This document shows positions 4,485 through 28,437 of a stretch of 64,000 bases of DNA, piece after piece (within the stretch, counting starts at the first letter, position 1; each line of letters opens with the position of its first letter). The stretch is taken from contig CAWFPD010000006.1 of the NCBI GenBank assembly GCA_963817725.1, positions 19,723 through 83,722 of the forward strand, in the 5' to 3' direction. The translations under genes were made by a program, and so were the position numbers. The notes beneath the pieces were generated by a model. That model did not search any database. It was not told where the DNA came from and worked only from the letters and a program-made list of their open reading frames with translations. Source of the stretch: an uncultured delta proteobacterium (GTDB lineage Bacteria > Myxococcota_A > Polyangia > Polyangiales > Houyiibacteriaceae).

Positions 4485-4795
4485 GCGCGCAACTTCCAGT
4501 CCCGTCGGCCGATAACCCACCAAGCCCCGAACCCGACGCCGCTCCTACAAAACCACCTCAGGCGCCAGTCCAACTCAGCCGTTCTTTGACAATCCAATCC
4601 AGATATCCGGGAGTGCCAGAGACGAGCCGCCACCGAACGCGCTGTGCAGATATCCGGGAGTGCCAGCGACGAAGCATCTAACCAAGCTGTCCAGATATCC
4701 GGAAGTCCCCACGGCAAGGAAGGTGCCTACCGGCGCTGGTTAGTCGAGTCGATGGATTGCAGCGCGCGGGAGATTTCCTGGATCGCGCGGGCATG
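4485..4795 (+). repeat. Decayed copy A of the composite module (junction repeat, HigB-like stub, 3 x 23-bp HNH-type repeats, 3' stub of the small membrane-protein gene)
   Basis: Junction at 4485-4518 (gcgcgcaacttcc...cggccgataaccc). The 23-bp repeats sit at 4597, 4642 and 4687 with a 45-bp period. On the minus strand 4727-4792 reads RAIQEISRALQSIDSTNQRR*, the C-terminus of the 14612/30567 family. Confidence 0.75.
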
Positions 4796-4883
4796 GGGCG
4801 CACGCACCTCGTCGTCCGCGACCTAGCCTGCTCGACCAGATGCCTCTTTTGGCCCCTACCAGGAGGAACCGCTATCTTGATGT

Positions 4884-5633
4884 TTGGGGGATGTGGTGAG
4901 TGGGCACGAAGGACTCCGCGGCAAACATCTGCTGATCGCGATCGTGGTTTTGGCAGCATCGCTTCTGCTCATTGCAATCGGAATCGAACAGTCAGCGGAA
5001 GGCAAACAACCACGTCTTGCCTCTCCTTCGGACTCGATCGCGTATTGCCGCCTTCACTGGAACGGAAGAGTAGAGAAGCAGCGCGGGTACCGATCTGCCG
5101 ATCTCATATGGGACGAGGACCTCGAGCCGGTCTTGGGGGCCAAGCAAGCCGAGTTGATGCCAAGCGGGCCTCCCCCACTCGGGGACTTTCCTGACGTGAG
5201 CTACATCCACTCTTTCGCTGTTGCCCTCACGCCATCGGATTGTGAGGTTCGATATGCTGAAGAGGCCGAAATCGTTTGTGAGAGCTCTTGTTATGAGCTT
5301 GTTCGGGACAATGTGGTGGCGGCCAGCGCAAAGGTAGCTTGCGAGTCTTGTTTGGACCGCAACCGACGCGGGAGGAACAAGGGGTGCCTTGGGGAAGAAC
5401 CGAAATGTCCGCCTTTTTCCTTCAACGCAGTCATAGAGTCCGTCGAGGAGAACGATCCGAGCGCGGCGCGAGTGACAATACTCCAAGAGGGCAACGCGAA
5501 AACAAAGGCCATCGTGGATTGTGTCCGAATGCGCGACTGCAAGAACGTAGGTGAAAGAGTCCTCTTCAACTGCTGGGGCAAGTCTGACGCATCGCAAATC
5601 ATTCGCTATCAATACTGCGAGCAGGGCCGGTAG
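4884..5633 (+). CDS. Membrane-anchored Cys-rich protein, paralog family member P1
   Basis: TM helix LLIAIVVLAASLLLIAIGI. The C-terminal domain ...FSFNAVIESVEENDPSAARVTILQEGNAK... is shared with 5764..6342, 6339..7520 and 22363..22937. The start codon is uncertain (TTG 4884 or GTG 4893). Confidence 0.55.
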   Translation: MGDVVSGHEGLRGKHLLIAIVVLAASLLLIAIGIEQSAEGKQPRLASPSDSIAYCRLHWNGRVEKQRGYRSADLIWDEDLEPVLGAKQAELMPSGPPPLGDFPDVSYIHSFAVALTPSDCEVRYAEEAEIVCESSCYELVRDNVVAASAKVACESCLDRNRRGRNKGCLGEEPKCPPFSFNAVIESVEENDPSAARVTILQEGNAKTKAIVDCVRMRDCKNVGERVLFNCWGKSDASQIIRYQYCEQGR

Positions 5634-5763
5634 CACATCCAGGCTTCACACGTCCGTGCCCGCCGTCCGCCGCGCTATAGCGCTCGACCCGCCGGGCTAC
5701 GGCCTTCGATAAGCCGCTCGCCGTCCCGTCCGGCTGCCGGGGTACGGTGTCCTCCGTGGGATT

Positions 5764-6342
5764 TCAACGCCCGAAGCGAAGGCTGTCAAACCGGGCCGAG
5801 CTCTCATCGCTCGTGGTTTCGGCTCTTGCGACGCACCCCAGCTCGTCAGATTTGGATGCCAACATCTGCACGCAGTCCTGGAACCGTGGCACGCCATCTG
5901 GATCGTCGACGCTGTCGAAGCATGCAAACCTCACCGGCGCGCCCTCTTGCCCTATCACGCGCGCGTCTTCAGCCACGACGCTGCGATCGACGATGCCCCG
6001 AGTGAGCGCTCCGTGCTCTCCGAGGATGATGACCCGCGCGGCGTGCCCATCCTCATCGACCTCCGCCTCGATGACCGCGTTGAAGCAGTAGCCCACGCAA
6101 CCATCGCTGCTCATGACCGGAGTCGCCGCCGGCAACTGCTCCCAGTCGAGGCCATCCGAATCGTACGTTGGGAAGGCACAGTCTTCGCCGCCCTGTGCTT
6201 TGGCCGACGCGCTTGCGTAGGCTCCAGCGTATTGTTGTCTGCTGAGAGTGAGAAGGCGGCCGACGGCGACCAACAACAGCAGCGCGCCTACCGTTATCGT
6301 CACCCGAGCGACACGAAGTGCTTTTCCGCGGTTTTGTTTCAC
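5764..6342 (-). CDS. Membrane-anchored Cys-rich protein, paralog P2
   Basis: TM segment VTITVGALLLLVAVG. Domain CVGYCFNAVIEAEVDEDGHAARVIILGEHG...VRFACFDSVDDPDGVPRFQDCVQ. The GTG at 6342 overlaps the TGA of the upstream gene (GTGA coupling). An alternative ATG lies at 6387. Confidence 0.6.
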   Translation of the reverse strand: MKQNRGKALRVARVTITVGALLLLVAVGRLLTLSRQQYAGAYASASAKAQGGEDCAFPTYDSDGLDWEQLPAATPVMSSDGCVGYCFNAVIEAEVDEDGHAARVIILGEHGALTRGIVDRSVVAEDARVIGQEGAPVRFACFDSVDDPDGVPRFQDCVQMLASKSDELGCVARAETTSDESSARFDSLRFGR

Positions 6343-7520
6343 AGCTTCCCCGCTTTCGCTTTGAAAGCCTTCGATGCGGTCAAGCACGCCCAGTCGTCCG
6401 CTGGATCCGCTTCCATTTGGACGCAGTCATCAAAATGCGGCGCGACACCGCTGCCATCCGACTTGTCGAAGCAAGCGAATCTCAGGGGTTCTCTCCGACC
6501 CTCTTCCGTGTCAGTCGACGCCGCGACCACGCTGCGACTCAGGGTAGCTCGAGCGAGCGCACTGCCTTCGTCCAGGATCGCAACCCGAACGACATCAGGT
6601 GATTCTTTGGCCGTCGAATCGATGAACGCCCTGAAGCAGTATCCCACACAGCCATCGCTCGTTTGCGCCACGTCTGCCGGCGGGAGCCTCTTCCAGTGAT
6701 TCAACCCTGGTTGGTAATTGGGGTCTGAGCAGTCGTGTCGCGGTTTCCTCGAGCTAACCCTCGGTACGCCCGGGAGGCTTTGACCGTGACATCGCACGCC
6801 GGAGACGTGAGCGGCCAAGCCGCCTCTGCCTTCGGACGATGTCGTCCATTCGATCACGTCATTCTTGAGCATCCGGACTCCGCCCTGATGCTCGCCCTGA
6901 CCGGTGACGTATAGACCATTCGCCGCGACGACAACGAGATCGCTGCACCAAAGCCAGTCATTGCCGACTTCGGTCTGACCGTCCCTATCGCAGAGAAGGG
7001 TTTCCGGACCTTCGACTTTCACCGCGAGGAAGTCGCCGTCGTGGCGTGGAACGAAGGGCTTACCTTCGTGGTCCAAGAAATCGAAGCGATTGTCGGTCTC
7101 TCCATTCACGCCTCCGATTTCCACCTCCACGGTGAGCGGGTCCAAGCTCCACAGCCGATAGCGCGCTGGAGAGTCTGTTTCCACTATCTGCCCATTGCCT
7201 CTCGGTCCTCCCGCGGTTGTGCTCACGTGGAAGCGGTTGCACTCCGTCCAGGTCCACAAGCTCGCTCGCGTACCCTGTGCGAGCTTCTCGCCCAGGGTCT
7301 CAGAAGTTGCTGGCCGGCTGGGGTCGCCCCACGTCCGTTCGAACCTGGCCGGAAACCCCATCCTGTTGGCGGTCGGAGGGTCGGGGACCGGCGATGAAGG
7401 CTCCGCCCCCGACTCTTGCTCCTCACCAGCCTGAATGTCTAACGATCCGCTGCGCTGTGTCGGAGCCGTTGTCTTGCATCCAGCGAGCCCAACCGCCAAC
7501 GCCAAAATCAACCATCTCAT
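6339..7520 (-). CDS. Lipoprotein with C-terminal Cys-rich paralog domain (P3)
   Basis: Signal and lipobox MRWLILALAVGLAGC starting at 7520. C-terminal domain CVGYCFRAFIDSTAKESPDVVRVAILDEGS...LRFACFDKSDGSGVAPHFDDCVQ. Confidence 0.65.
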   Translation of the reverse strand: MRWLILALAVGLAGCKTTAPTQRSGSLDIQAGEEQESGAEPSSPVPDPPTANRMGFPARFERTWGDPSRPATSETLGEKLAQGTRASLWTWTECNRFHVSTTAGGPRGNGQIVETDSPARYRLWSLDPLTVEVEIGGVNGETDNRFDFLDHEGKPFVPRHDGDFLAVKVEGPETLLCDRDGQTEVGNDWLWCSDLVVVAANGLYVTGQGEHQGGVRMLKNDVIEWTTSSEGRGGLAAHVSGVRCHGQSLPGVPRVSSRKPRHDCSDPNYQPGLNHWKRLPPADVAQTSDGCVGYCFRAFIDSTAKESPDVVRVAILDEGSALARATLSRSVVAASTDTEEGRREPLRFACFDKSDGSGVAPHFDDCVQMEADPADDWACLTASKAFKAKAGKL

Positions 7521-7759
7521 CCGAAGCCCCCAATCCCCGACAATCCGAACAGCGATTTGCTCAGCGATCCGTATGCCTCCACCTACAACGTAGCAATCGA
7601 GCACCGACGCTTCCAAACCGTGAGACAAACCACAAAACGCGAGGTCGCTCGGCTCGCCGATCGGACTTGCTTCCCAATCCCGTAGCGCCCAGTGAATCAG
7701 CCTCTGTCGTTTGTGGGTCAGGTTTGCACTTCGCTAATCTGGAAAGGGGGAGGCAGTCG

Positions 7760-8422
7760 ATGCGGGATAGGAGTCAGAAGCGCTGGGCGACACCGCACGT
7801 GCTCACGATGACGCTCGCCCTGGCGATCACCATGGCTTTGAATGGCTGTGGCGCGGCACCTCCCGCCGCGCAGCCCACGGCGCAAGTCGTCGAACGCCAC
7901 TACTACTACTACAACGCGACGCCAGAGGCGCAGCAGGCACCTCCAGCGCAACCCGCACCGGCCGCAGCGGCACCCGTTCTGCAGCAAACACCGGCAACCG
8001 CTGCACGGCAAACACCGGCACCAGCACCTGCAGAAAACCAAGCAAAGGTGATTCTGGCGACGCTGGCGACTTTGCTGGAAAGCGACGTAAACAGCTTCTA
8101 TGAGATGTGCATGCAACCGCCCGCTGGCGACTTCACTCGGCGCGACGGCAATATCTATCATTGCTGGCAGGCCGAGGACGATCCGCCCTATAACCTTGCC
8201 GTCAGGTCCGAGGTGAGCTCGATCACCATCGCATCCTTCGCCACGTCGATGTCGGAGTTCGGGAACATTGGACGTGGTATGTACGAGCTCCTCGGAGATC
8301 CAGACGACATCACAGGAAATGAAGCCACCTGGGAAAGGTCAGGCGTGTACGTCCGCCTGATCGCGGACAAGGAAGCACAGGCGACGATGGTCGTGGTGTC
8401 TCGAAAGGGACAACAACTGTAA
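7760..8422 (+). CDS. Lipoprotein, Pro/Ala/Gln-rich linker, unknown function
   Basis: An ATG is preceded by ggggga-gg. Signal and lipobox LALAITMALNGC. The longer ORF 7217..8422 upstream part is antisense to the 6339..7520 gene. Confidence 0.6.
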   Translation: MRDRSQKRWATPHVLTMTLALAITMALNGCGAAPPAAQPTAQVVERHYYYYNATPEAQQAPPAQPAPAAAAPVLQQTPATAARQTPAPAPAENQAKVILATLATLLESDVNSFYEMCMQPPAGDFTRRDGNIYHCWQAEDDPPYNLAVRSEVSSITIASFATSMSEFGNIGRGMYELLGDPDDITGNEATWERSGVYVRLIADKEAQATMVVVSRKGQQL

Positions 8423-8537
8423 CCGTCTGCGGCACGGTGGTGACGGCTGTCACCGGACACCAACACGGGGCGACGGGACGCCTCTAAGTTGCGGTCGAGA
8501 GGCGCGCGCCCCTAACTTTGGAAAAGAGGAGAACAAC

Positions 8538-8846
8538 ATGGCGCGGCGCGGTACGTATTTGGGTGCGCTCTGGCTTGTCTCGGCGTGCGTGATCGCGCTT
8601 GCTGGGTGCACTAAGAAAACGGGATCGACGGAGGAGCAGAGCGCAGCGAGCTTTCAGTGCGACCGGGACGGGTGGTGCCGGAAGACCTGCAACGTTCTAG
8701 GGATTGCGGTTCTGGCCGGCCTCGAAGCCGAGATCGCTTCGGTGCGTGGAGGGCAAGGCCTCTCGCGCGACGAAGCCTACGCCAAAGCCAAAGCAAATCT
8801 CGAGTCATGGCGATCGTCATCGCGCCGCTTGCAGAAGGCGGTCTAG
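8538..8846 (+). pseudogene. Chimeric ORF: lipoprotein signal fused to the 3' part of a ParD-like antitoxin cassette
   Basis: The N-terminus is LVSACVIALAGC. From about 8709 the sequence LAGLEAEIASVRGGQGLSRDEAYAKAKANLE is nearly identical to the C-terminus of 27958..28221. It is followed by a ParE-like start stub (MAIVIAPLAE...) cut off by junction copy 8881-8917. Confidence 0.45.
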
Positions 8847-8917
8847 ACGGTCCGCTGACCACGCTCCGCTCAGGCGTCGAACGCGCAACTTCTGTCTCCG
8901 TCGTCCGATAACCAACC

Positions 8918-9178
8918 ATGCGCCGCGGACGATGGCGGTTCTACGAAACCGCCTCCGGTGCCAACCAAGTTCAAGCGTTCCTTGACAACCTAACCGCAAG
9001 CGAGGCCGCCGAAGTGGCCGCGGCGATGGAAGAAGTCGCCCGACACGGCCTCCGCCGCGCTCGCCACCTGCGGGGAGACATCTGGGAGGTTCGCGTCGAG
9101 GGTGAACGAAAAGCGTTCCGCGTGGTGTTCAGTCCCGAAGGCGGGTGCAACGCCGAGCCAAACCAAGAGACGACCTGA
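8918..9178 (+). pseudogene. Truncated Gp49/RelE-family toxin (paralog of 23243..23593)
   Basis: MRRGRWRFYETASGANQVQAFLDNLTASEAAEV...IWEVRVEGERKAFRVVFSPEG matches the intact paralog, then diverges and stops early. Confidence 0.7.
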
Positions 9179-9342
9179 AGCGCTACATCGCCGAGCGCGA
9201 CGCGCGCGAGCCAGGGTTTGCCGCGCTCGTGGCGGACGCGGAAGCACGCTTGGCATTTGGTCGCCAGATGGCCGAGCGCCGACGCACCCAAGGCCAGACA
9301 CAGACGCGCCCGCGCCCGATGCCGTTATCCAGATATCCGTGA
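9145..9342 (+). pseudogene. Truncated XRE-type antitoxin (paralog of 23634..23990), fused to a 23-bp repeat and to the 3' end of another antitoxin
   Basis: RRAKPRDDLKRYIAERDAREPGFAALVADAEARLAFGRQMAERRR matches the 23634 protein. The homology ends at repeat 9324-9346. Positions 9355-9430 then encode LIRTLLALGVNRKQVGRAIGAA, the C-terminus of the 16926/26606 antitoxins. Confidence 0.65.
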
Positions 9343-9346
9343 CCCC
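9324..9346 (+). repeat. Single copy of the 23-bp repeat (gttatccagatatccgtgacccc)
   Basis: Direct match to the CTGTCCAGATATCCGKGAGTCCC family. Confidence 0.8.
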
Positions 9347-9594
9347 GAAGACGAGGTCCTGATCCGCACACTCCTCGCCCTCGGCGTGAACCGAAAGCAA
9401 GTGGGCAGGGCGATCGGCGCAGCCCCCGCAGCGGAACCCCCAAAGAACACACGGAAAACAACTGGCCGTGCACACAGCCACCCTAACACAACAGGGTCCA
9501 CGGCCGCTCCGTCGTGCCCAAGGTGCGACGAGCTCACCGGGCATGGCCCATTCACCCCTCGGCCGGCTCAAACACCATACCAGCGACGAAAGCA

Positions 9595-10486
9595 GCGCCC
9601 CCCTTCTAGGGCACTAGCGCCGTTCACGCCGCAGGCGGCGGAGGGTGACGTGTGCTGGCGGTCCTGCCACGAGCTCGATTCCGCGGCTGTCGTTGCTTTG
9701 GAACGCGCTTGCGGTGATCACCTCGCCGTCCCCGAACAGCTCGATGCTGAAGCGATCGAAGACGGCCACGAAGCCCTCGGCGTTCGGCGCATCGCGGGTG
9801 AAGCGCGCAGAAAAACCTTCGCTGATTTCACGACCCTCGGTTCGGTCCACCACCAAGGTGCCGTCGGCCAGTCCCAGCTCGAGAAACTCGTCTTCGCCCA
9901 CGTGTACGCGGAACATCGCGTCCCCACGCACCTCGAGGACGAACGCCTCGCCCTCGATCCCCGCGAAGTCCTCGAAAGCGCGCAACTTCCTCCGGTGTCG
10001 GCCGATAACCAAGCATGCGCCGCAATCGATGGCGGTTCTACGAAACCGTTTCGGGCGCCAAGCCAGTCCGATCGTTCCTTGACAACCTAGCTGCAACCTC
10101 GCATCCGACCCCGACGAGCTCGCCGAAAGCGACGCAGCCACCCGAAGTCCAGATATCCGTGAGTGGGGGAGCCGAAGCCGCGCGCAATGAACCCGATGGA
10201 CGCGCCGGCAAAGAAAGGGCCGGCGCGCCCGAGCCCATGCCGCTGTCCAGATATCCGTGAGTGCCGGAGCCAACGAACCCACTGTCCAGATATCCGTCAG
10301 TCCCAACGACGAAGGCAGCGTTGTCCAGATATCCGTGAGTCCCGGAGACGAGGTCCGCTGTCCAGATATCCGTGAGTCCGGCGTCGACCGCGCCGTCATC
10401 TCCCGAACGCGACCACCGCAAGATCGATACGGCGCCGAGACGAACGCGCGCAATCGCGTAACTCCCGCCGGCGACGGTCGATAACC
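9595..10486 (+). repeat. Copy D of the composite module. It is a deletion derivative of block 18085..20272 (GH32 3' fragment, junction, HigB-like stub, 5 x 23-bp repeats, second junction).
   Basis: On the minus strand 9614-9970 encodes FAGIEGEAFVLEVRGDAMFRVHVGEDEFLELGLADGTLVVDRTEGREISEGF...LRRLRRERR*, the GH32 C-terminus. Junction at 9978-10014. The stub is ATG 10015 MRRNRWRFYETVSGAKPV.. The repeats are at 10145, 10243, 10282, 10321 and 10358. The second junction is at 10445-10486. Confidence 0.85.
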
Positions 10487-10525
10487 CTTCGTGCCTCTCA
10501 CCTCCCACCAAGCCTCCGGGATGAC

Positions 10526-10543
10526 ATGCGTCACGTGACGCAT
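10526..10543. promoter_or_regulatory. Perfect 18-bp palindrome ATGCGTCACGTGACGCAT, candidate HigA operator
   Basis: The palindrome ends 5 nt before the higB ATG (10548). Confidence 0.5.
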
Positions 10544-10547
10544 TACC

Positions 10548-10829
10548 ATGATTAAGTCGTTTGCGAATAGGCACACGGCCGACCTATTCTTCACGGGCAA
10601 GTCTCGGCGGCTGCCGCCAGACATCGTTCGACGGGCAATACGAAGGCTCGACTATGTTCACCTCGCAAAGCGGCTCGATGATCTCAGAATCCCTGCCAGC
10701 AACCGGCTGCACGGCTTGCACGGAGACCGAAAGGGGCAGCACGCAATATTCATCGACAAGCAGTGGAGGGTCTGTTTTCGCTTCGAGGGCGGCAATGCCT
10801 ATGAAGTAGAGGTGACCGACTACCACTAG
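10548..10829 (+). CDS. higB: HigB-family toxin (plasmid maintenance system killer)
   Basis: MIKSFANRHTADLFFTGKS...NRLHGLHGDRKGQHAIFIDKQWRVCFRFEGGNAYEVEVTDYH is the classic HigB pattern, ending in DYH. Confidence 0.85.
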   Translation: MIKSFANRHTADLFFTGKSRRLPPDIVRRAIRRLDYVHLAKRLDDLRIPASNRLHGLHGDRKGQHAIFIDKQWRVCFRFEGGNAYEVEVTDYH

Positions 10830-10839
10830 CCCGGACGGA

Positions 10840-11154
10840 ATGACCATGACACTCAGAAGGAAACGGCAAAGACGCCCCACGCACCCCGGAGAGTTCCTCC
10901 GCGAGGACTTCCTGCCCGACTACAACCTTTCGGTCGCCGACCTCGCCGCGGCCATCAAGGTGTCCCGCCAGACCGTCAACGAGCTCATCAACGAAAAGCG
11001 CGCCGTGAGCGCGGCCATGGCCCTCCGTCTCTCCCGCTACTTCGGCAACAGCGCCGAGTTCTGGCTCAACGCCCAACGCGAGCTCGACCTCTGGGAAGCA
11101 GAGCGCCTCCACAAAGCCGAGCTCAAACAAATCAAGCCCCTGTCGGCCGCCTAG
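10840..11154 (+). CDS. higA: HigA-family antitoxin (HTH)
   Basis: HPGEFLREDFLPDYNLSVADLAAAIKVSRQTVNELINEKRAVSAAMALRLSRYFGNSAEFWLNAQ is the HigA signature. It starts 10 nt after higB. Confidence 0.85.
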   Translation: MTMTLRRKRQRRPTHPGEFLREDFLPDYNLSVADLAAAIKVSRQTVNELINEKRAVSAAMALRLSRYFGNSAEFWLNAQRELDLWEAERLHKAELKQIKPLSAA

Positions 11155-11225
11155 CGTTTCGCGAGCTCGCTCAAAGGCCGCAACTCCACTGACGTCGTAG
11201 CGGTGGAGAGGAAAGACTCATCCCT

Positions 11226-20341: not shown

Positions 20342-20572
20342 ATGATGTCGACGATTCGCGCCCGAGTTCGCAATGGCCGCCTCATCGTGGACGCGCCGAC
20401 TGACCTTCCCGAAGGCACCGAGCTCGATCTCGTAATCGACGACGCTGGCGACGGTCTCGACGCGGCCGAACGCGCCGCGCTCCACGCCGCCATCGGGCAA
20501 GCATGGGCGTCGTTCCAAGCCGGGGAAGGGCGCCTCGCCGCCGACGTCCTAGCTGACCTAGCCAAGCGCTGA
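20342..20572 (+). CDS. Small antitoxin-like protein, orphan (no toxin partner seen)
   Basis: MMSTIRARVRNGRLIVDAPTDLPEGTELDLVIDD resembles a swapped-hairpin/AbrB-like N-terminus, followed by ...AERAALHAAIGQAWASFQAGEG. It is preceded by junction copy j. Confidence 0.4.
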   Translation: MMSTIRARVRNGRLIVDAPTDLPEGTELDLVIDDAGDGLDAAERAALHAAIGQAWASFQAGEGRLAADVLADLAKR

Positions 20573-20579
20573 GCCCTCC

Positions 20580-20760
20580 GTGGCCAGGCTACACCCAAAC
20601 CCAAGTCGCCGACCTCATCGGCTCCAGCCAATCCAGAGTCGCCAAGATGGAAGCCGGCGACCCAACCGTCTCGGTCGACCTCCTCATCCGCACCCTCCTC
20701 GCCCTCGGCGTAAACCGAAAGCAAGTGGGCAGGGCGATCGGCGCCGCCGCCTCGGCGTAA
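20580..20760 (+). pseudogene. 3' half of an XRE antitoxin gene (paralog of 16926/26606), no start codon
   Basis: Encodes GYTQTQVADLIGSSQSRVAKMEAGDPTVSVDLLIRTLLALGVNRKQVGRAIGAAASA*. A further 56-bp piece lies at 22295-22350. Confidence 0.75.
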
Positions 20761-20779
20761 CCAACAGTTCCAACCGACC

Positions 20780-22134
20780 TCACTCCGGCAACTCGACCCC
20801 CGCCAGCTCGAACGCCGTTGCCCACACCGTATGTTGGAGCCCTGGAACCGAGCGCGCGGGTCCGTGAAAGCCCTCAGGCACATGGAAGTGCCGGCCGTAG
20901 CTCGTCGCGTATTCGCTGTAGCCCTCCTGCTGGTCGATGCGGTCACTCTCGGGAGGCACTTCAAGCCCGATCGGTGACCATGGGTCCTTGCCGCCCGACA
21001 CGAACACCAGTGGAACCCCCGCGGTCTCTAGCGCTGCAACGTCCGCGGCTTGTCCCTCGTGCTCCCTCACGAGATCAACCCAAACAGCGCCTGGCACTGT
21101 TCCGCCCAGTCTTCCTCGGTGCGCTGCCAAATGCCGTCAGGCCCCGAGGTGCGAAACGTCCCGATGTCGGTGCACTGCTGCCACATCCAGGTGCGCTCCC
21201 ACGGGTACTTCTCGAGCGCCTCCTCGCGTGACAGCGTCTTCAGCGCCCGGTTCTCCGCCCAGGCGGTAGCCTCTCCACCGGAGAACGCCTGGTCCAGCTC
21301 GCGGCCTTCCTCGATGAGCTGCTCGGTCGTCCGCGTCGCCGCCAAGCTCTGAAAGACCGGCACCAGCGACTGATACGCTGCGTATTGCGTGAGCCCCGCG
21401 GCGATACCCTCGAAGAACTCGCGGTCGATCCAGGTCTGATCAAAGAGCTCGGCCGGTTGCAGGTTCTCGATATGTCCGACGGCGTCCGCATACGCCTCTT
21501 CCCCGAGGAGCTCCCTCGTGAACAGGTCGTACTCCGCAAACGCCACCGGGTGCTCGACGATGCCACTCGCATCGACCACCGCGACGACGTCTTCCGGGTA
21601 CTTCGCGGCATACTGAAGAACCAATCCGCCGGTATAGCTCGAACCAAGCACGAACCACGGGCCCGTGTAGATCTCCTGCAATGCATTCGCGACCTCATGG
21701 GCATCCTCGGCCGCCTCACGCCGCGACACGTAGTGCGGCGTAGTTTGATCCGGATTGTCCGACAGGCTGTTGCCGTATCCTCGATGCTCTAAGTCAACGA
21801 CGATCATGGGGATTCCGAGCCGCCCCTGAATGCTCCCGACGAATGCCTCGTCGATCGGCGGCTGCTCACCTCCGAGCGCGAACAGCACCGGTGCATCGGT
21901 CTCTACGCCATCTGGAACTCCTACGTTGATGTGTTGATCGACGTGTCCGTCCGACGCGCGGTCGCGAAACTCGGGCTGCCGCGCAACGTATTGAACGAGC
22001 GTGTGCCCCTCGCGTGCCTCTTCATTCGTTTTCATGACTTCGGTCGGCGGCACCTCGAGCGACTCGCCATCCGAGCCACACGCAGCCGTCAGCACCAGCG
22101 CCACAAGCGTCCAAACCCTCACTCTCGCACTCAT
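20780..22134 (-). pseudogene. S28-like serine peptidase (alpha/beta hydrolase) lipoprotein with a frameshift near 21065-21085
   Basis: Start MSARVRVWTLVALVLTAACGS. Nucleophile motif LGSSYTGG. The ORF ends ...EQCQALFGLIS*, while the next frame continues VDLVREHEG...PLVFVSGGKDPWSPIG. The break is at the ctgtttgggttg homopolymer runs. Confidence 0.6.
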
Positions 22135-22194
22135 CGCGAACCTCACCTTCTCGATGATCATCAAGAGGTAGTTAGGAGCACGAAGCCGAGGCCT

Positions 22195-22214
22195 CCATAC
22201 GTAATTCTTTCCGG
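22195..22214 (-). promoter_or_regulatory. AT-rich conserved motif ccggaaAGAATTACGTATGG (copy 1 of 3)
   Basis: Lies 61 nt upstream of the S28 peptidase start. The same 13-14-mer occurs at 37512-37534 and 40880-40903. Confidence 0.4.
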
Positions 22215-22362
22215 ACCGGCCGGCGCAAATCCTGCGCCAACCGTCGTGGCGGCCGCAGCTCACCCCTCCGCAGGCTCAAACACCGCCGAGAAAACCTCGG
22301 CTACACCCAAACCCAAGTCGCCGACCTCATCGGCTCCAGCCAATCCCGCGTCGCGGGGGCGG

Positions 22363-22937
22363 CTATTCCAGCGTCGCCATCTGGCTGCAGCTTTCGAACC
22401 GCAGCCCGTCTTTTTCTCGGAAGCGGTCGAAGCAAGCAAAGCGGACGGGCTTGCCTTCAGCAGCGGGTATGCGGGACGAGGACAGAATCCTGGTTCGTTC
22501 CACGCAGGCGGGCGTCCTCTTGCCCTTCTTCCCAATGATCACGACTCTCGCGAGGCGCCAGTTGTCCTCGTCCACCGAGTCGATCGTCGCGTTGAAACAG
22601 AAGCCGACGCAGTTGGAGGCGGGCTCGGGTCGCGGGAAGGATCCTCGCCCGCCGCGAGCTGCTCCTCGACCCATCGCTTCCAATCCGGCGCGTTCCAGTC
22701 GTAGCAACCGATCAAGCTCGCGCAGTTGCCGTAGCCGGTGGTGTCGCGCGATTCAGGCTCGACGAGGTCCTCAGCGAAATGGACCTGCCTCCGTGAGCTC
22801 GGCTGGCCCCGCAACCTGTTCCTCTTGCGCTTCAAGGCCCCTGAACCCACATCCGTCGTGCCGACGACGACGAGCAGCCCCAACGCAATGGCGACTCCAA
22901 CAAACGCGACACGAGCTCGACTTCCCCCAGCGTCCAT
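22363..22937 (-). pseudogene. Cys-rich family paralog P4, frameshifted
   Basis: The N-terminal part MDAGGSRARVAFVGVAIALGLLVVVG...CASLIGCYDWNAPDWKRW is in one frame. The C-terminal domain NCVGFCFNATIDSVDEDNWRLARVVIIGKKG...VRFACFDRFREKDGLRFESC is in another. The frames overlap at 22539-22707. Confidence 0.55.
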
Positions 22938-23165
22938 GCTCAACCAACCCCCCACAACCACAATACCAACCCCCGCGTCCGCACCCCAGTTGGCGTCGTC
23001 ACGAAACCCTGAGTTTCCAGTCAAAAACAACAAGCCGCGCGGCCTGTTCGTTTTCCGACGAAAGCACGCAACGTCGCCGCCTTATGGCCGATGACTGAGC
23101 ATGCGCGTCGACAACCAAATCCCAAGGGACATCCGTGACCCCCGAAGACGAGGCGCCGGATAGAG

Positions 23166-23187
23166 CTGTCCAGATATCCGCGCGTCC
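23166..23187 (+). repeat. Single 23-bp repeat copy (plus a decayed copy at ~23120-23142)
   Basis: ctgtccagatatccgcgcgtcc. Confidence 0.7.
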
Positions 23188-23242
23188 TACGAACTGGTTG
23201 CGCAATCGCGCAACTCCCGTCGCGACCGTCCGATAACCAACC

Positions 23243-23593
23243 ATGCACCGCAGACGATGGCGGTTCTACGAAACCGCTTCGGGTGCCAAGCCAGTTCAAG
23301 CGTTCCTTGACAACCTAACCGCAACCGAGGCCGCTGAAGTGGTGGCGGCCATGAAAGAGATCGCCCGGGAAGGCCTCCGTTTCGCTCGTCACCTCCGCGG
23401 CGACATCTGGGAGGTTCGCGTCGAGGCCGAACGCAAAGCGTTCCGCGTGCTGTTCAGCCCCGAGGGAAGGGCCCAACAGGTCCTCTTGGCTCTCGACGCG
23501 TTCACCAAGAAGACCCAAAAGACACCAGCTCGCATGATCGAGCTCGCTGAGCGTCGCCTGTCGGATTGGCGAAGCCGGGGAAGGGGAGCGTAG
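23243..23593 (+). CDS. Gp49-like/RelE-ParE superfamily toxin (intact)
   Basis: MHRRRWRFYETASGAKPVQAFLDNL...RHLRGDIWEVRVEAERKAFRVLFSPEGRAQQVLLALDAFTKKTQKTP. The ATG follows junction copy k directly. Confidence 0.8.
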   Translation: MHRRRWRFYETASGAKPVQAFLDNLTATEAAEVVAAMKEIAREGLRFARHLRGDIWEVRVEAERKAFRVLFSPEGRAQQVLLALDAFTKKTQKTPARMIELAERRLSDWRSRGRGA

Positions 23594-23633
23594 CGTTGAG
23601 GCGCATTGCCACCTCACAAAAGGTATACTACAT

Positions 23634-23990
23634 ATGATAAATCTCATGGGACGCCGAGCCAAACCAAGAGACGACCTCGAACGCTACATCGCGAATCGCG
23701 ACGCCCGCGAGCGCGGCTTCGCCGCCTTCGTCGCTAATGCAGAGGTGCGATTGGCCTTTGGCCGTCGGATGGCCGAACGCCGGCGAGCCAACGGCAAGAC
23801 GCAAACCCAAGTCGCAGCCCTCATGCAAACCTCTCCAGCCATCGTGAGCCGCCTCGAGTCGGGCCACGACGTCCGCGTCTCCACCCTCGAGAAGTACGTA
23901 GCCGCCCTAGGTTTGCGGCTCGAAATCAACGCCGTGCCGCCAATGAAGCCGACCACCGAAGCGTCGCGCGCACGCCGCGCGAAGAAGTAG
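23634..23990 (+). CDS. XRE-type HTH antitoxin
   Basis: KTQTQVAALMQTSPAIVSRLESGHDVRVSTLEKYVAALGLRLEINAV. Confidence 0.75.
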   Translation: MINLMGRRAKPRDDLERYIANRDARERGFAAFVANAEVRLAFGRRMAERRRANGKTQTQVAALMQTSPAIVSRLESGHDVRVSTLEKYVAALGLRLEINAVPPMKPTTEASRARRAKK

Positions 23991-24017
23991 TTTCGCACGC
24001 CGCTGGTTTCTGATCCC

Positions 24018-24611
24018 ATGCCCGAACCCGATCCAGCCAAAGTCAAAACCTTTGCGTCAGCAAAAACGCTGCGGCAATGGCTCAAAGCCAACCATGCCTC
24101 CGAAAACGAGCTTTGGATCAGGGTATTCAAAGTGAAGACGGGCAAACCAAGCGTCAGTTGGACTGAGATCGTCATGGAAACGCTATGCTGGGGCTGGATC
24201 GACGGCATCAAGAAGTCCATCGATGGCGAAGCCTACCTCCAGCGGATCACGCCACGAAAACCTCGAAGCAGTTGGTCCAAGCGGAACCGAGAGCATGCGG
24301 AGCGTTTGATCGGCGAGGGTCGCATGCAGGAGCCGGGGCTGGTGCAGGTCCGCGCCGCGAAGGCGGACGGACGCTGGAAGAATGCCTACGCGGCAAGCGA
24401 AATGAAACTGCCCGCGGATTTCCTGGCAGCGGTCGAACGCAAGCCCAAAGCGAAACAATGCTTTGAAACGTTGAACAAGACCAATCGATACGCCATCGCG
24501 TACGGACTCACGACGGCCAAGCGACCCGAAACCAGAAAGAAACGCTTCGACGAGTTCCTGGACATGCTCATCCGCGGAGAGAAGCCGGACTTCGGGTTCA
24601 AGAAAACATAG
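24018..24611 (+). CDS. YdeI/OmpD-associated family protein
   Basis: WLKANHASENELWIRVFKVKTGKPSV...CWGWIDGIKKSIDGEAYLQRITPRKPRSSWSKRN...TAKRPETRKKRFDEFLDML. Confidence 0.7.
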   Translation: MPEPDPAKVKTFASAKTLRQWLKANHASENELWIRVFKVKTGKPSVSWTEIVMETLCWGWIDGIKKSIDGEAYLQRITPRKPRSSWSKRNREHAERLIGEGRMQEPGLVQVRAAKADGRWKNAYAASEMKLPADFLAAVERKPKAKQCFETLNKTNRYAIAYGLTTAKRPETRKKRFDEFLDMLIRGEKPDFGFKKT

Positions 24612-24681
24612 CAAAGCAATGAAGCCGCCAATCGGAGAAGAGGCGATAGCGAGTGACGAACCGCGCCCAAGCGTGATGCCG

Positions 24682-24704
24682 TTGTCCAGATATCCGGGAG
24701 TCCC
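24682..24704 (+). repeat. Single 23-bp repeat copy
   Basis: ttgtccagatatccgggagtccc. Confidence 0.8.
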
Positions 24705-24730
24705 ACGGGCAATTATCCTAACGGTCGCCC

Positions 24731-24859
24731 GGGCCCATTGACCTCACCCCCCTCGCCGCTAGATCCACAGCATCCCCAAACCCCCACGCGCACGACGACG
24801 ACATGGCCCAACGCCTCTACGAACACAGTCGCGAGCTCGTGGGCCTGGAGGCCTCATGA
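24731..24859 (+). pseudogene. Internally deleted remnant of an SDR gene paralogous to 35639..36637
   Basis: 24731-24780 aligns with the promoter/start region 35599-35650, with the ATG mutated to ATC. 24781-24859 encodes ..HDDDMAQRLYEHSRELVGLEAS*, matching the SDR C-terminus. Its TGA overlaps the ATG of the next gene. Confidence 0.7.
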
Positions 24860-25998
24860 CCCAAACAATCTCCGGTGACGCCCTTCAATTGCGATCGATC
24901 ATCAAAAGCGACGGCACGCTCGAGTTGTCGCTCGAGACGCTCCCGATCCCCCAACCCAAAGACGACGAGGTGCTCGTTCGCATCGAAGCATCGCCGATCA
25001 ACCCGTCGGACCTCGGTCTTCTGTTCGGCGCCGCGGACCCGTCGACCATGCGCGCGTCGGGCAGTCCGGATCGCCCGGTCGTAACCGCAAGCGTTCCCGA
25101 GAAGTCCATGCGCGCGATGGCCGCCCGCGTCGACAAGTCGCTGCCAGTCGGCAACGAGGGCGCAGGCGTCGTCGTTGCGGCGGGCGCGGGCGCCCAGGCG
25201 CTGATCGGCAAAACCGTCGGCGTGGTCGGCGGCGCCATGTACTCACAGTACCGCTGCCTTCCAGCCAAGCAGGTGCTTCCCTTCCCCGAGGGCACAACCC
25301 CGGCAGATGCCGCATCCTGGTTCGTCAATCCCCTGACCTCGCTCGGCATGGTCGAGACGATGCGCCTCGAAGGCCACAAGGCCCTCGTACACACGGCCGC
25401 CGCCTCGAATCTCGGTCAGATGCTGCAGAAGGTCTGCCTCGCGGACGAAATTCCCCTCGTCAACATCGTGCGTAAACCCGAACAGGTCGAGCTACTCCGC
25501 GGCATGGGCGCCTCCCACGTATGCAACTCGAGCGAACCCACCTTCATGAAAGATCTCACCAACGCGCTCGTCGAGACGGGTGCGACGCTGGCGTTCGACG
25601 CAATCGGCGGCGGTACGCTGGCCGGGCAGATTCTCACCTGCATGGAAGCCGCCGCAAGTTCGACTGGGGCCGCGTACAGCCCCTACGGCTCCACTACACA
25701 CAAGCAGGTCTACATCTACGGCGGACTCGATCGCAGTCCCATCGTATTGAACCGCAGCTTCGGCATGGCCTGGGGCGTCGGCGGCTGGCTCTTGTTCCCG
25801 TTCCTCCAAAGGATCGGCCCCGAAGCCGTTCAGAAGCTGCAGACCCGCGTCGCCGCCGAAATCAAAACCACCTTCGCGAGCAACTACACCCGCGAGGTCT
25901 CCCTCGCCGAGGCCCTCACCCTCGAAGCGATCGCGGTCTACGGCAAACAAGCAACCGGCGAAAAGTTCCTACTCAACCCCAACAAGGGCATCGCCTGA
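24856..25998 (+). CDS. MDR-superfamily (zinc-type/quinone oxidoreductase-like) dehydrogenase
   Basis: DDEVLVRIEASPINPSDL, a GroES-like N-terminus, and the Rossmann region LVHTAAASNLGQML. Confidence 0.65.
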   Translation: MTQTISGDALQLRSIIKSDGTLELSLETLPIPQPKDDEVLVRIEASPINPSDLGLLFGAADPSTMRASGSPDRPVVTASVPEKSMRAMAARVDKSLPVGNEGAGVVVAAGAGAQALIGKTVGVVGGAMYSQYRCLPAKQVLPFPEGTTPADAASWFVNPLTSLGMVETMRLEGHKALVHTAAASNLGQMLQKVCLADEIPLVNIVRKPEQVELLRGMGASHVCNSSEPTFMKDLTNALVETGATLAFDAIGGGTLAGQILTCMEAAASSTGAAYSPYGSTTHKQVYIYGGLDRSPIVLNRSFGMAWGVGGWLLFPFLQRIGPEAVQKLQTRVAAEIKTTFASNYTREVSLAEALTLEAIAVYGKQATGEKFLLNPNKGIA

Positions 25999-26215
25999 AC
26001 ACACGGACGCCGATCCTCGCCGCCCTACGCAAACGACGCCCCTGAGCGACGGTCGAGAACAACAGGCCGCGCGGCCTCACCAAGGTTGATACGCAGCCAA
26101 CCGAGCTGGCCGAAGGAACGCGCGCCTTCGTCGCCCGCCACGGGCGCGCACAAACGCGCAACTTCGCGCGCCATCAACCGATGACTCCCATGACGAGGGG
26201 ATCATGTAGGCTCGC

Positions 26216-26241
26216 TTGCATATCCATGTCAGATATGACAT
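26216..26241 (+). promoter_or_regulatory. Candidate promoter/operator of the 26259 TA operon
   Basis: TTGCAT followed by the inverted repeat ATGTC-agatat-GACAT. Paralogous to 16536-16563. Confidence 0.45.
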
Positions 26242-26258
26242 AAACAGTTCATGGCTTC

Positions 26259-26609
26259 ATGCTGGATAAGCCGCTCGTTTGGCTTGGGAGCAAGGTTCGA
26301 AGTCCGCCGTTTTCCCAAGACGCTCGGCGGCAGGCGGGGTGGCTCGTGAGGCGGCTGCAGAACGGAGAAGCGCTTTCTATGCCGAAGTCCCGGCCCATGC
26401 CCGGCATCGGCCCGCGCTGCCATGAGCTCCGCATCGACGACCGCGAGACCGGGAAGACCTGGCGCATCATCTACCGAGTCGACCCCGACGCGATTGTCAT
26501 CGTCGATTCATTCGCAAAGAAGTCGCAGGCAACGCCCCGAACCGCGATCGCCCGCGCAGCACGGCGTCTCCGGCTCTACGACGCATCCGCCAAGGAGGCA
26601 CTGCAATGA
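26259..26609 (+). CDS. Gp49-like/RelE-ParE superfamily toxin (paralog of 16579)
   Basis: PLVWLGSKVRSPPFSQDARRQAGWLVRRLQNGE...CHELRIDDRETGKTWRIIYRVDPDAIVIVDSFAKKS. Confidence 0.8.
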   Translation: MLDKPLVWLGSKVRSPPFSQDARRQAGWLVRRLQNGEALSMPKSRPMPGIGPRCHELRIDDRETGKTWRIIYRVDPDAIVIVDSFAKKSQATPRTAIARAARRLRLYDASAKEALQ

Positions 26610-26929
26610 AGCAAGAGAAACGCCGCCGGCTCGAGGCCCAAGGCTGGAAGTTCGGCTCTGCAAAAGAGTTCCTCAACCTCACCGACGAAGATGTCGAGTA
26701 CATCGAGCTCCACCTCTCCCTCGCGGCCCTCCTCACAAAACGAAGAAACTACCTCGGCTACACCCAAACCGAAGTCGCCGCCCTCATCGGCTCCAGCCAA
26801 TCCCGCGTCGCCAAAATGGAATCCGGCGACCCAAGCGTCTCCGTCGACCTCCTCATCCGCACCCTCCTAGCCCTCGGCGTAAACCGAAAGCAAGTGGGTA
26901 GGGCGATCGGAGCAGCTGCTTCTGCGTAG
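26606..26929 (+). CDS. XRE-family HTH antitoxin (paralog of 16926)
   Basis: LGYTQTEVAALIGSSQSRVAKMESGDPSVSVDLLIRTLLALG, with a 4-nt overlap with the toxin. Confidence 0.8.
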   Translation: MKQEKRRRLEAQGWKFGSAKEFLNLTDEDVEYIELHLSLAALLTKRRNYLGYTQTEVAALIGSSQSRVAKMESGDPSVSVDLLIRTLLALGVNRKQVGRAIGAAASA

Positions 26930-27082
26930 GCTCCAACGACACTGCAAAGACAACGGGCCGCGGGGGCCTCAGCGAAGTCGATACCCCGCTAGCCGAGCTC
27001 GCCCGAAGGAACGAGCGCCTTCGGCGCGCGCCACCATTGCCACATCCCCCGTCTCCACCAGGACACGCTATCCTAGCCGTCG

Positions 27083-27586
27083 ATGGCAGCCGCGACTCCC
27101 AAGATCGAGCTCATCTACGACCCTGACTGCCCGAACGTGGAGCGGGCGCGCGAACGGCTTCGCCAGGTCGTAGAGGCGGCAGGAGCTTCCCTGGGGGTGG
27201 TCGGCGGCCACGTCGCGTTCGTCGATCAAGATGGTGGGCGAGCCATGGCCTCGCGCGTAGTCGGGGAGCGCGGGATCGTCGCTCCGCCACTCGGTCCAAG
27301 CGAGGCCTTGGCCGCGCTCGGCGATGCCAACCAACGAAAGCACGGCCTGCGTTTCGAAGACGCAAAGTCCATCTTCATCTGGGAAGCCGACCGATTGGAT
27401 GAGCGCGACGAATGGCACCCAGCGAGCGAGGAGCGTTTCATCTCGATTGGGCCGATCGCGCTGGGCCTCGTCACCGTCGTCTGGACTGAGCCGGTTGACG
27501 ACTTGGTGCGGATCATCAGCGTGCGTCTGTCGACGAGGCGCGAGCGTGAAAGATACTGGCGATACAAGTCCGGTGACTACGCATGA
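27083..27586 (+). pseudogene. Chimeric ORF: rearranged thioredoxin-like remnant fused in frame to a 5'-truncated BrnT toxin
   Basis: The N-terminus is KIELIYDPDCPNVERARERLRQ. From ANQRKHGLRFEDAKSIF... the sequence parallels BrnT 17441 but lacks its first 13 codons. The opposite strand of 27172-27300 encodes AWTEWRSDDPALPDYARGHGSPTILIDERDVAA...SSCRLY. Confidence 0.5.
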
Positions 27587-27906
27587 CTGACGATCTGGAA
27601 ATTCGCGAGCTGACGGACGCCGATTTCAAAAGGATGATTCCGGCGCCGGTCAGGCGGCGCATACGCGAAGGACGGATCGAGTCTGGTAGAGACATCATCC
27701 TGCTTCGGCGCTTCGTCGGCCTTAGTCAGAAAGAGTTCGCGCGCGCTCTCGAGATCAGCGTTCACACACTGCGTAACTGGGAGCAAGGCCGCCGCCAACC
27801 CGAAGGCCCCGCCATCGCGCTACTGAAAATCGCGGCCCGGCATCCAAACATCGTTCGGCAAGCAGCAGGCCGCGGGCCATCTTCGCCCAGCGCAAAGAGC
27901 CGCTAA
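27583..27906 (+). CDS. HTH antitoxin, paralog of 17734..18060
   Basis: LRRFVGLSQKEFARALEISVHTLRNWEQGRRQPEGPAIALLKIAARHP. Confidence 0.75.
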   Translation: MTDDLEIRELTDADFKRMIPAPVRRRIREGRIESGRDIILLRRFVGLSQKEFARALEISVHTLRNWEQGRRQPEGPAIALLKIAARHPNIVRQAAGRGPSSPSAKSR

Positions 27907-27957
27907 CCGGCCTCGTCGGCCCCCCGCAACTTCCACTCCGTCGGCCGATAATAAAGT

Positions 27958-28221
27958 ATGTCCAACACACTCCTAGAATCCACCGGGAAAGGAAGGTTTG
28001 CTTTGCCCATGGCCGTGATCGTCCACTGGAACGGTGTCGACGTTCCTGAAGAGCTGAAAGCCCTGAAGAAGGGCCGCTACGTGCTCGTCCCGATCGACGA
28101 GCCGCCTGAGCTCACCGAAGAGCAAGAGGCCGGCCTCGAGGCCGCGCTCGCGTCCGTGCGTGAGGGGCAAGGTCTCTCGCGAGATGAGGCGTACGCGAAA
28201 GCCAAGGCAAACCTAGAGTGA
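27958..28221 (+). CDS. ParD-like small antitoxin
   Basis: The ATG follows junction copy l. The C-terminus is LTEEQEAGLEAALASVREGQGLSRDEAYAKAKANLE. The stop overlaps the GTG of a ParE-like stub. Confidence 0.5.
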   Translation: MSNTLLESTGKGRFALPMAVIVHWNGVDVPEELKALKKGRYVLVPIDEPPELTEEQEAGLEAALASVREGQGLSRDEAYAKAKANLE

Positions 28222-28346
28222 CGGGTCTCGTCGTAGCGCTCGAGGCGCTCGACGACCTGGCGGCTGCAACGACCTACATCGCTCGCGATAATCCGGCCGC
28301 GGTGACCAAGTCACGCCAAGGGGCGGCCTGTTGGAATTCGAACGAA
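28218..28346 (+). pseudogene. 5' stub of a ParE/RelE-family toxin truncated by junction copy m
   Basis: MTGLVVALEALDDLAAATTYIARDNPAAV... then the homology is lost where junction 28347-28385 begins. Confidence 0.55.
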
Positions 28347-28396
28347 AGCACGCAACACGCTCCAGCGGCGTCCGATAACCAGGCATGCTCAAGCGC

Positions 28397-28426: not shown

Positions 28427-28437
28427 CACAAGTAATC

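Follow-up and report, generated by a model that had tools for sequence, protein, structure and literature searches.

A short repeat that heads the modules of a toxin-antitoxin-rich island in an uncultured delta proteobacterium of the Polyangiales is probably a promoter-type regulatory motif belonging to the gene downstream of it. It lies in a 64-kb stretch of the contig (64,000 nucleotides (nt), hereafter the window) in which the island occupies 4.4-30.4 kb. A sequence-only reading of the window had taken the repeat for a cassette boundary, a recombination site or a miniature inverted-repeat transposable element (MITE), and not for a simple promoter. We find that modular units do begin, at their 5' boundary, with the repeat, as that reading held, while its recombination-site and MITE parts are unsupported. 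The geometry of the motif and its recurrence before genes for DNA uptake and repair in other Myxococcota point instead to a leaderless promoter resembling those read by extracytoplasmic function (ECF) sigma factors, and serving a DNA-uptake/DNA-repair regulon.

Reading the copies and their flanks confirmed a GC-rich repeat at the reported positions and in about the reported number (some 16), with 12-13 strong copies, three degenerate variants and one weak copy (Table 1), all on the plus strand between 4485 and 28380. A count of the 3' box, CGKCCGATAACC, gave 11 occurrences at ≤1 mismatch versus 0.64 expected, again all on the plus strand, at 4.5-28.4 kb. The motif has the fixed-spacing form CGCAAC-N12-CGKCCGATAAC(C), with a spacer of 12 nt (11 in one copy) and not of 11-16 nt as first described; the wider range arose because some copies have a further box, GCGCAAT, in front of the true CGCGYAAC box. 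Its conserved core is C(G/A)CAAC, 16-17 nt, CGA(T/C)A, and the start codon follows CGA at a distance of 8-10 nt. The two boxes, both ending in AAC on the same strand, are direct and not inverted. No strong copy was found outside the island in the window, where 34 kb of ordinary genes were covered. A search of the window against Rfam at gathering thresholds and a tRNA scan gave no match.

The link to start codons is tighter than had been described. Instead of an ATG 0-5 nt after only six copies, an ATG or GTG stands 4-7 nt after GATAAC in about 13 of 15 copies, and there is no Shine-Dalgarno sequence in that gap. The statement that other genes start 50-110 nt downstream holds for the real genes (HigB, BrnT, AF2212-like and Gp49-type toxins), but it overlooked a short open reading frame (ORF) that occupies the position right after the motif in these cases, and whose start is kept in relatives before BrnT and HigB. 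The later-starting genes also have sigma-70-like promoters or operators of their own. One of the short ORFs, of 22 codons (20277-20345), begins 6 nt past copy J9 and its stop overlaps, as ATGA, the start of the AF2212-like gene at 20342, which suggests translational coupling from a leaderless upstream ORF. That the repeat precedes every plus-strand cassette was too strong a claim, as six plus-strand genes have no copy (4884, ~7761, 8538, 24018 (OmdA), 24856 (ADH) and 27083 (BrnT')). The motif heads at least six unrelated genes, so that it cannot be explained as upstream DNA copied along with a single duplicated gene family, in agreement with the sequence-only reading.

We scanned one genome per species, 185,579 species in all, for the strict motif and found it in at least 118 stretches, with approximately 44% of the matches listed coming from Myxococcota-type records (Polyangiales, Sandaracinaceae, Kofleriaceae, Bradymonadales, Myxococcus, Pyxidicoccus and 'delta proteobacterium' metagenome-assembled genomes (MAGs)). 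Some 140 chance matches are estimated for that much DNA, and the set is therefore mixed. Among the matches listed, 21 of the 35 Myxococcota sites outside islands have a start codon 3-9 nt after GATAAC, and 15 of the 35 an ORF of at least 40 codons there; the corresponding figures for other taxa are 12/64 and 7/64, and we treated these matches as mostly due to chance. Pfam assigned the downstream genes to RadA, ComEC (two), ComF, YraN/UPF0102, endonuclease I and PDDEXK_3 (PD-(D/E)XK nuclease); a third motif-headed ComEC is ComEC-like by sequence and is not among the two scanned with Pfam. In unrelated Myxococcota genomes, comEC, comF, radA, yraN and an endonuclease I gene have the motif 4-9 nt ahead of their start codons, and its carriers include two cultured strains, Myxococcus sp. 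RHSTA-1-4 (before the endonuclease I gene) and Pyxidicoccus fallax DSM 14698. A fixed short distance to the ATG of such single-copy genes is how a promoter would be expected to behave. A link to phages was rejected, as only three matches were found in 2.9 million viral contigs.

Since these sites had been found by the motif itself, loci fetched by protein similarity alone served as an independent test. Upstream of radA, all four of the closest metagenome relatives (64-76% identity) carry the motif or a variant of it (for example CGCAAC-N12-CCGTCGATAAC, 9 nt, ATG), with the ATG 7-9 nt past the box in three loci and ~30 nt past it in the fourth (L122). Likewise, all four Kofleriaceae-type ComEC homologues chosen from a protein search (59-75% identity) have C(G/A)CAAC-N12-NNNNCGATANN before the gene, with the gene caller's ATG 6-8 nt later, and in each of these 14- to 22-kb comEC loci the sole match to the relaxed motif is the one at comEC. 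Taken as a proxy for the distance to the transcription start, the start codon thus stands 4-9 nt after GATAAC at the motif-found sites and 6-9 nt after it in seven of the eight independent loci. Altogether the element precedes ComEC at three motif-found and four independent loci, RadA at one and four, and ComF at one. A general housekeeping promoter was ruled out by the 34 kb of ordinary genes without a copy and by the single match, at comEC, in each comEC locus.

A sequence-only profile was then built from seven of these foreign comEC and radA sites, and both strands of the window were searched with it. The 12 best matches are island copies, all on the plus strand, with scores of 17.6-8.8 bits and E values of 0.0003-0.22. 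The columns that are invariant in the seven sites, C..AAC and CGA.A, 16-17 nt apart, are the same in the window copies. A more distant RadA clade (51-56% identity, GC content 0.66-0.72, soil metagenomes; loci L139, L142, L146, L151, L152, L155, L157, L159-L163, L166, L175, L178, L179, L185, L186, L195 and L196) has (G/C)CCGATACTT, 6-7 nt, ATG before radA. This clade shares the CCGATA core and the leaderless arrangement, and that part of the motif may therefore be older than the Myxococcota.

The related genomes also indicate which gene the motif goes with. In these, each module type (BrnT, HigB, ParD-like, Gp49) nearly always has a motif copy directly before it, while the sequence upstream of the motif is interchangeable between two terminator-like types. 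As the modules keep the motif while the upstream sequences swap, the motif belongs to the downstream gene.

We next consider how such a promoter might work. The CGCAAC box would be the -35 element and CCGATAAC the -10 element, with transcription starting at, or within 1-2 bases of, the start codon, so that the mRNA would be leaderless. The likely reader would be an ECF-type alternative sigma factor recognizing AAC at -35 and CG(T) at -10. The genes so marked (comEC, comF, radA, yraN, endonuclease I and PD-(D/E)XK nuclease) would make up a DNA-uptake/DNA-repair ('competence-like') regulon, to which the toxin-antitoxin (TA) and HNH modules of the hypervariable island would be attached by one promoter copy each. 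Where the true gene starts later, a short leaderless ORF would fill the position after the motif.

In Bacillus subtilis, promoters of the sigma-W/M/X type read TGAAAC or TGCAAC, 16-17 nt, CGTA or CGTC. The present motif resembles such ECF (group 4) promoters in a -35 box ending in AAC, in a CG-led -10 box 16-17 nt further on and in the small dedicated regulon that it would serve. The gene set, on the other hand, concerns DNA uptake and repair and not the cell envelope as in the B. subtilis type, and the transcripts would be leaderless. The ECF hallmark is AAC at -35 and CGT at -10 (PMC8103513), whereas the -10 box here reads CGAT or CGAC.

That departure from the consensus is one of several points that weigh against an ECF-like promoter; GATAAC also lacks the final T of the sigma-70 -10 hexamer. 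Promoter function and leaderless initiation are inferred from geometry and comparison; the transcription start and the type of sigma factor or activator are likewise inferences, and the regulon might answer to competence signals or to DNA damage. None of the fetched loci yielded a cognate sigma/anti-sigma pair or an autoregulated sigma gene: tblastn searches of all these loci with RpoE and SigW gave nothing at E<1e-3, and low-stringency Pfam searches for a sigma factor near regulon genes were negative or marginal. In addition, the motif is more uniform in the island (CGKCCGATAACC) than a promoter strictly needs, and unrelated upstream sequences join at or just before CGCAAC, which leaves room for a second role as a recombination hotspot. 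Lastly, the genome-scan matches include chance ones, and membership of the regulon was only sampled. A single weak lead to a regulator lies ~1 kb downstream of comEC in locus L207 (4743-5561, minus strand), where a 272-aa protein with below-threshold similarity to RpoE region 2 and Sigma70_r4_2 might be a divergent sigma-like regulator.

Dedicated competence promoters are known from other bacteria, such as the ComX 'cin-box' of streptococci. The CRP-S/Sxy system of Haemophilus influenzae likewise ties comEC (rec2), comF and radA together by one promoter type, and a common control element before comEC, comF and recombination-mediator genes is what we find here. The H. influenzae competence promoters also drive toxTA, which encodes a toxin of the ParE/RelE superfamily and an HTH-XRE antitoxin (PMC6957337), much as the motif heads Gp49/helix-turn-helix (HTH) modules in the island. 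Both CRP-S/Sxy sites and the cin-box differ from the motif in sequence and in the inferred mechanism, and competence is not known to be tied to the motif in any myxobacterium.

The motif might also be mainly a transcription-factor site on a housekeeping-sigma promoter, bound by a repressor or by an activator that takes the place of -35 recognition, in the manner of PafBC in mycobacteria. The PafBC motif of Actinobacteria is tTGTCRgtg-N8-TAnnnT. Promoters dependent on PafBC (RecA-NDp) carry an upstream element in place of the normal -35 and control a DNA-damage regulon (PMC8635444), so that an activator-dependent promoter of this kind is possible by analogy; the likeness is in the distinctive upstream element, whereas motif and phylum differ and no WYL-type regulator is implicated here. 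A 3' box that exceeds a typical -10 element in both length and conservation would fit a bound factor, as would the failure to find a sigma gene near any regulon member and the other clade in which GGCCGATACTT precedes radA, where GATACT, a good sigma-70-like hexamer, is followed by the ATG at 6-7 nt. The AAC-N16/17-CG arrangement, however, is the ECF pattern, and the boxes are neither palindromic nor clear tandem half-sites. We regard a transcription-factor site as unlikely to be the main function, although it would be a variant of the promoter explanation, not its opposite, and no evidence here separates the two.

Recombination has to be weighed as well, because truncated genes had been described as ending exactly at the 5' edge of the repeat. 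This is so for one ParE stub (residues 38-59), which runs directly into CGCGCAAC at 8881, but the other (residues 3-30) is separated from the motif by ~35 nt of terminator-like extension and three GH32 fragments share a junction ~10 nt upstream of CGCAAC. There is, then, no single fixed base, and the distances from CGCAAC are 0, ~10 or ~35 nt. As the GH32 fragments have one junction in common, they trace to a single truncation event that was copied by later duplication. The joins carry 5-6 nt of microhomology (GAAGTC/GAATTC and TCGAA), and variable breakpoints with microhomology are the signature expected of illegitimate recombination, not of a site-specific crossover. Under the promoter explanation, such microhomology-level recombination would have inserted, deleted and duplicated modules and so made genes seem to end at the motif, and only rearrangements that kept the downstream promoter would be recognisable as copies.

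A further alternative is that the copies are attC sites of a chromosomal integron or are acted on by some other site-specific recombinase. In its favour, as in sedentary chromosomal integrons, the array is long, co-oriented and rich in TA modules, it sits at a similar chromosomal position in several genomes with content varying between relatives, and the CGCAAC box resembles RYYYAAC. An attC site, however, is an imperfect inverted R''(RYYYAAC)-L''...L'-R'(GTTRRRY), and the boxes here, which both read ...AAC on one strand, do not form an inverted R''/R' pair. Nor does the element fold: when the 38-nt core was folded as DNA, z was near 0 for either strand in 13 of the 15 copies, and only the separate upstream GC hairpin does fold. 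A crude scan of 4-31 kb for attC architecture returned one candidate (7612-7728, versus 0.1 ± 0.4 in shuffles), which is not at a copy. No recombinase, integrase or transposase domain turned up in the Pfam-scanned ORFs of the window, ten large ORFs of related arrays encode hydrolases, methylases and similar enzymes and no tyrosine or serine recombinase, and the gene tables of L202 and L203 list no recombinase either. Integron cassettes are, moreover, mostly promoterless and carry attC at their 3' end, whereas the motif is promoter-like, stands at the 5' end of the unit and goes with the downstream and not the upstream gene; unit boundaries are imprecise, with no fixed crossover base, and the motif precedes single-copy comEC and radA outside any array. 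The attC reading was ruled out on box orientation, folding, architecture and the integrase search, and the wider recombinase-site alternative is largely refuted and very improbable. A Xer site of the dif/pdif type was ruled out by inspection of the copies, in which an arrangement of two inverted 11-bp arms about a 6-bp spacer is absent.

Still less can be said for a self-inserting selfish repeat, either a MITE or an element of the repetitive extragenic palindromic (REP) type. Short, GC-rich, multi-copy and confined to intergenic positions, the copies do have the general appearance of one, but they show no terminal inverted repeats, target-site duplications or palindrome; they are never solitary and nearly always have a start codon at a fixed distance, their strong copies are confined to the island within the window, and they are kept before orthologous genes across families of Myxococcota. 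This alternative is already contradicted, and we give it next to no weight. Self-comparison of the window yielded no inverted matches, all repeats and duplications being direct, and shows 4.4-30.4 kb to be a mosaic of direct-orientation duplications.

A further possibility is that the motif, perhaps with the GC hairpin and the VQIS repeat described below, doubles as a recombination anchor for homology-facilitated insertion, replacement or deletion of modules, which could take place during natural transformation or after breaks made by the HNH enzyme. Modules do move. Related Polyangia-type MAGs carry BrnTA, HigBA, Gp49/HTH, ParD-like, AF2212-like and HNH modules in different orders and combinations beside homologous flanks, which amounts to cassette-level polymorphism, a point on which the sequence-only reading holds; the array adjoins homologues of window genes at 31.8-37.3 kb in L034, L039, L062 and L111, and arrays tend to sit at contig ends, as repeat-rich DNA would. 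Segments 16042-18460, 20299-20764 and 24257-24663 are 91-98% identical to L002/L034 ('delta proteobacterium' MAG CAVOVB010000002.1), where the adjoining flank gene is 80% identical, suggesting recent horizontal exchange of island DNA between lineages. The free combination of two kinds of upstream extension with several downstream genes, joined at or just before CGCAAC, and the direct orientation of every repeat and duplication would also fit an anchor, as would a solitary HNH gene among gene fragments in a Myxococcales MAG (L203, 9579-12573 of CP070650.1). This gene has a TTGACA/CATAAT promoter, one VQIS repeat and no motif, and is flanked by short products with partial matches to FA_desaturase, RTC and PmbA_TldD; it looks as if the flanks are gene fragments and the HNH gene was inserted on its own. 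The breakpoints at 0, ~10 and ~35 nt with just 5-6 nt of microhomology speak against an anchor, however, and so do module boundaries that lie at the hairpin or exclude the motif entirely (L097, L203); homologous recombination is poorly served by a 30-nt repeat at ~85% identity, and no enzyme is implicated. We judge an anchoring role rather unlikely. The most far-reaching version, also unlikely in our view, would make the island an integrase-free cassette system of Polyangia-type myxobacteria, with an uptake/repair-regulon promoter on each cassette, which would turn the cassette on during uptake or repair of DNA, and motif, hairpin and VQIS repeat as anchors for capture, swapping and loss, the recombination being transformation-driven and homology-facilitated, or following HNH breaks.

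Two further repeats accompany the motif. The long 5' extension attributed to the repeat contains, as described, a perfect GC hairpin ('type B'), which turned out to be a separate element, as it occurs once without the motif (27004-27034). It is kept in related genomes, often bounds a module on the left and probably closes the unit upstream of it as a terminator or insulator; having no T-tract, it may be an unusual terminator or an insulator. Another hairpin, AACAGGCCGCGCGGCCTGTT, occurs both inside and outside the island (23029-23048, 26064-26077, 36608-36641, 41392-41423 and ~47600); it probably recurs genome-wide, as a bidirectional terminator or a REP-like element.

The second repeat, TGTCCAGATATCCGKGAGTCCC ('VQIS'), forms tandem clusters at 4599-4701, 10149-10372, 19893-20154 and 29841-29935 and has a near-palindromic core around GATATC. 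The HNH gene holds three in-frame VQISxSP repeats in the last of these clusters, and its homologues carry 0-5. VQIS recurs 3' of many units, often where a toxin gene is truncated (behind N-terminal fragments of Gp49 or ParD-like genes without ParE). Elsewhere only a segment of ~150 nt recurs, never adjoining HNH coding sequence, and an origin of the VQIS repeats as plain remnants of broken HNH genes is thus only partly tenable. They might serve to bind a protein or act as a recombination hotspot.

Table 1. Motif copies, associated repeats and genes of the island (window coordinates; profile, scores of the profile built from foreign comEC and radA sites).
Feature	Position	Strand	Start codon and downstream sequence	Motif sequence, upstream sequence and scores
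J1, strong copy	4485..4517	+	decayed Gp49-toxin N-terminal remnant without start codon, homologous to 8882-8988 (self-comparison), then 3 VQIS repeats	profile 15.3 bits, E 0.0017
J2, strong copy	8881..8913	+	ATG 8918, truncated Gp49-like toxin	directly adjoins ParE stub (residues 38-59)
J3, strong copy	9978..10010	+	ATG 10015, Gp49 N-terminal fragment running into VQIS repeats	minus-strand GH32 C-terminal fragment upstream
J4, strong copy	10445..10486	+	GTG 10491 opens short ORF, GTG at +5 kept in 5 related genomes; HigB start 10548, HigA start 10840	CGCGTAAC-N12-CGGTCGATAACC, extra GCGCAAT box in front
Weak copy	13790..13813	+		GAAAC-N12-CGACCCATAACC; profile E 8.2, not significant alone
J5, strong copy	14401..14434	+	start codon lost (TAG), then 2 VQIS repeats	GH32 fragment upstream
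J6, strong copy	16193..16226	+	ATG 16231, Gp49 N-terminal fragment	GH32 fragment upstream; same junction in genome L034
Degenerate variant	16475..16510	+	ATG 16512; separate palindromic operator/promoter, then Gp49-type toxin (16579) and HTH antitoxin	profile E 0.63
J7, strong copy	17334..17366	+	ATG 17373 opens 12-codon ORF kept in 5 related genomes; BrnT start 17441, BrnA start 17734	5' box CGCAGC
J8, strong copy	19724..19756	+	ATG 19761, Gp49 N-terminal fragment, then 5-6 VQIS repeats	terminator-like 'type A' extension 19697-19723
J9, strong copy	20231..20271	+	ATG 20277 opens 22-codon ORF	3' box CGTCCGATACCC
Degenerate variant	23063..23096	+	ATG 23101	CGCAAC-N12-TGGCCGATGAC; just past terminator-type hairpin 23029-23048; profile E 2.2
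J11, strong copy	23198..23238	+	ATG 23243, sole intact Gp49-like toxin (116 aa), then HTH antitoxin 23634-23990	best profile match, 17.6 bits, E 0.0003
Degenerate variant	26153..26188	+	ATG 26190 opens 17-codon ORF; Gp49-type toxin (26259), HTH antitoxin (26606)	CGCAAC-N12-CAACCGATGAC; profile E 4.4
J12, strong copy	27923..27953	+	ATG 27958, ParD-like antitoxin (87 aa), then ParE stub 28227-28310 (residues 3-30)	11-nt spacer, GATAAT
J13, strong copy	28347..28380	+	ATG 28385 opens 16-codon ORF, then HNH gene with its own promoter	type A extension 28320-28346
Type B GC hairpin	17297..17331	+		GCGCGCC-ttc-GGCGCGC then CACGGGCGCGCGC; z -2.9
Other type B hairpins	16437-16472, 20201-20236			
Degenerate type B hairpins	26115-26150, 27004-27034			
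VQIS repeat	4599..29935	+	toward 3' end of many units	plus strand only, 23 copies, often tandem, period ~39
Gp49/RelE-like toxin and HTH antitoxin	23243/23634		one intact pair, five N-terminal fragments (Pfam)	
Gp49/RelE-like toxin and HTH antitoxin, second type	16579, 26259		two pairs	
HigBA	10548/10840			
BrnTA	17441/17734		decayed copy 27083/27583	
AF2212-like gene	20342			
ParD-like gene with ParE stubs	27958		a further one at 8538-8880	
'Cargo' genes		-	intact GH32 gene and three fragments, S28 peptidase, 809-aa protein	
OmdA, ADH	24018, 24856	+		no motif
HNH endonuclease gene	28438..30375	+	645 aa, right end of island; some relatives annotated DUF222	
Sigma-70-type promoter of HNH gene	28397..28426	+		perfect TTGACA-18-TATAAT, 12/12 matches

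The promoter of the HNH gene is kept before the solitary, motif-less HNH gene of L203. To the left of the island lie defence genes (6-4184): an HmaC AAA+ ATPase divided between two frames that overlap (6-1595 and 1339-2490), a sign of a frameshift or a pseudogene, and then an OLD/AriA/GajA-like ATPase (2511-4184). The genes on the right side are ordinary ones. The ADH gene is bracketed by sequences (24732-24852) that also bracket an SDR gene 11 kb to the right (35599-35649 and 36508-36588), as if one gene had replaced another within shared flanks, and 26060-26093 is repeated at 36608-36641. A small minus-strand gene of ~84 aa with a Gly/Ala-rich N-terminal end is present at 14612-14866 and, just outside the right end of the island, at 30567-30834 (78% identity), with a remnant at 4704-4791.

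Our literature search aimed at the motif found no description of it, and searches on myxobacterial leaderless or competence promoters and on Myxococcota integrons gave nothing specific; as far as the literature was searched, an ECF-like leaderless promoter motif of this kind appears previously undescribed, which is weak evidence of novelty. The case also holds a caution for genome scanning, in that a repeat that heads each cassette-like unit and is abutted by truncated genes can be a shared promoter and not a recombination site. If, less probably, the integrase-free cassette array were real, it would do the work of an integron by another mechanism. Little is known of gene control in Myxococcota other than Myxococcus. 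Should the motif indeed be a promoter, one short sequence would define a regulon of comEC, comF, radA, yraN and secreted or cytoplasmic nucleases, giving a handle on when Myxococcota take up or repair DNA and a bait for the sigma factor or activator involved. Selfish modules, namely TA pairs and an HNH endonuclease, would then be wired to that regulon, echoing the competence-regulated toxTA of Haemophilus.

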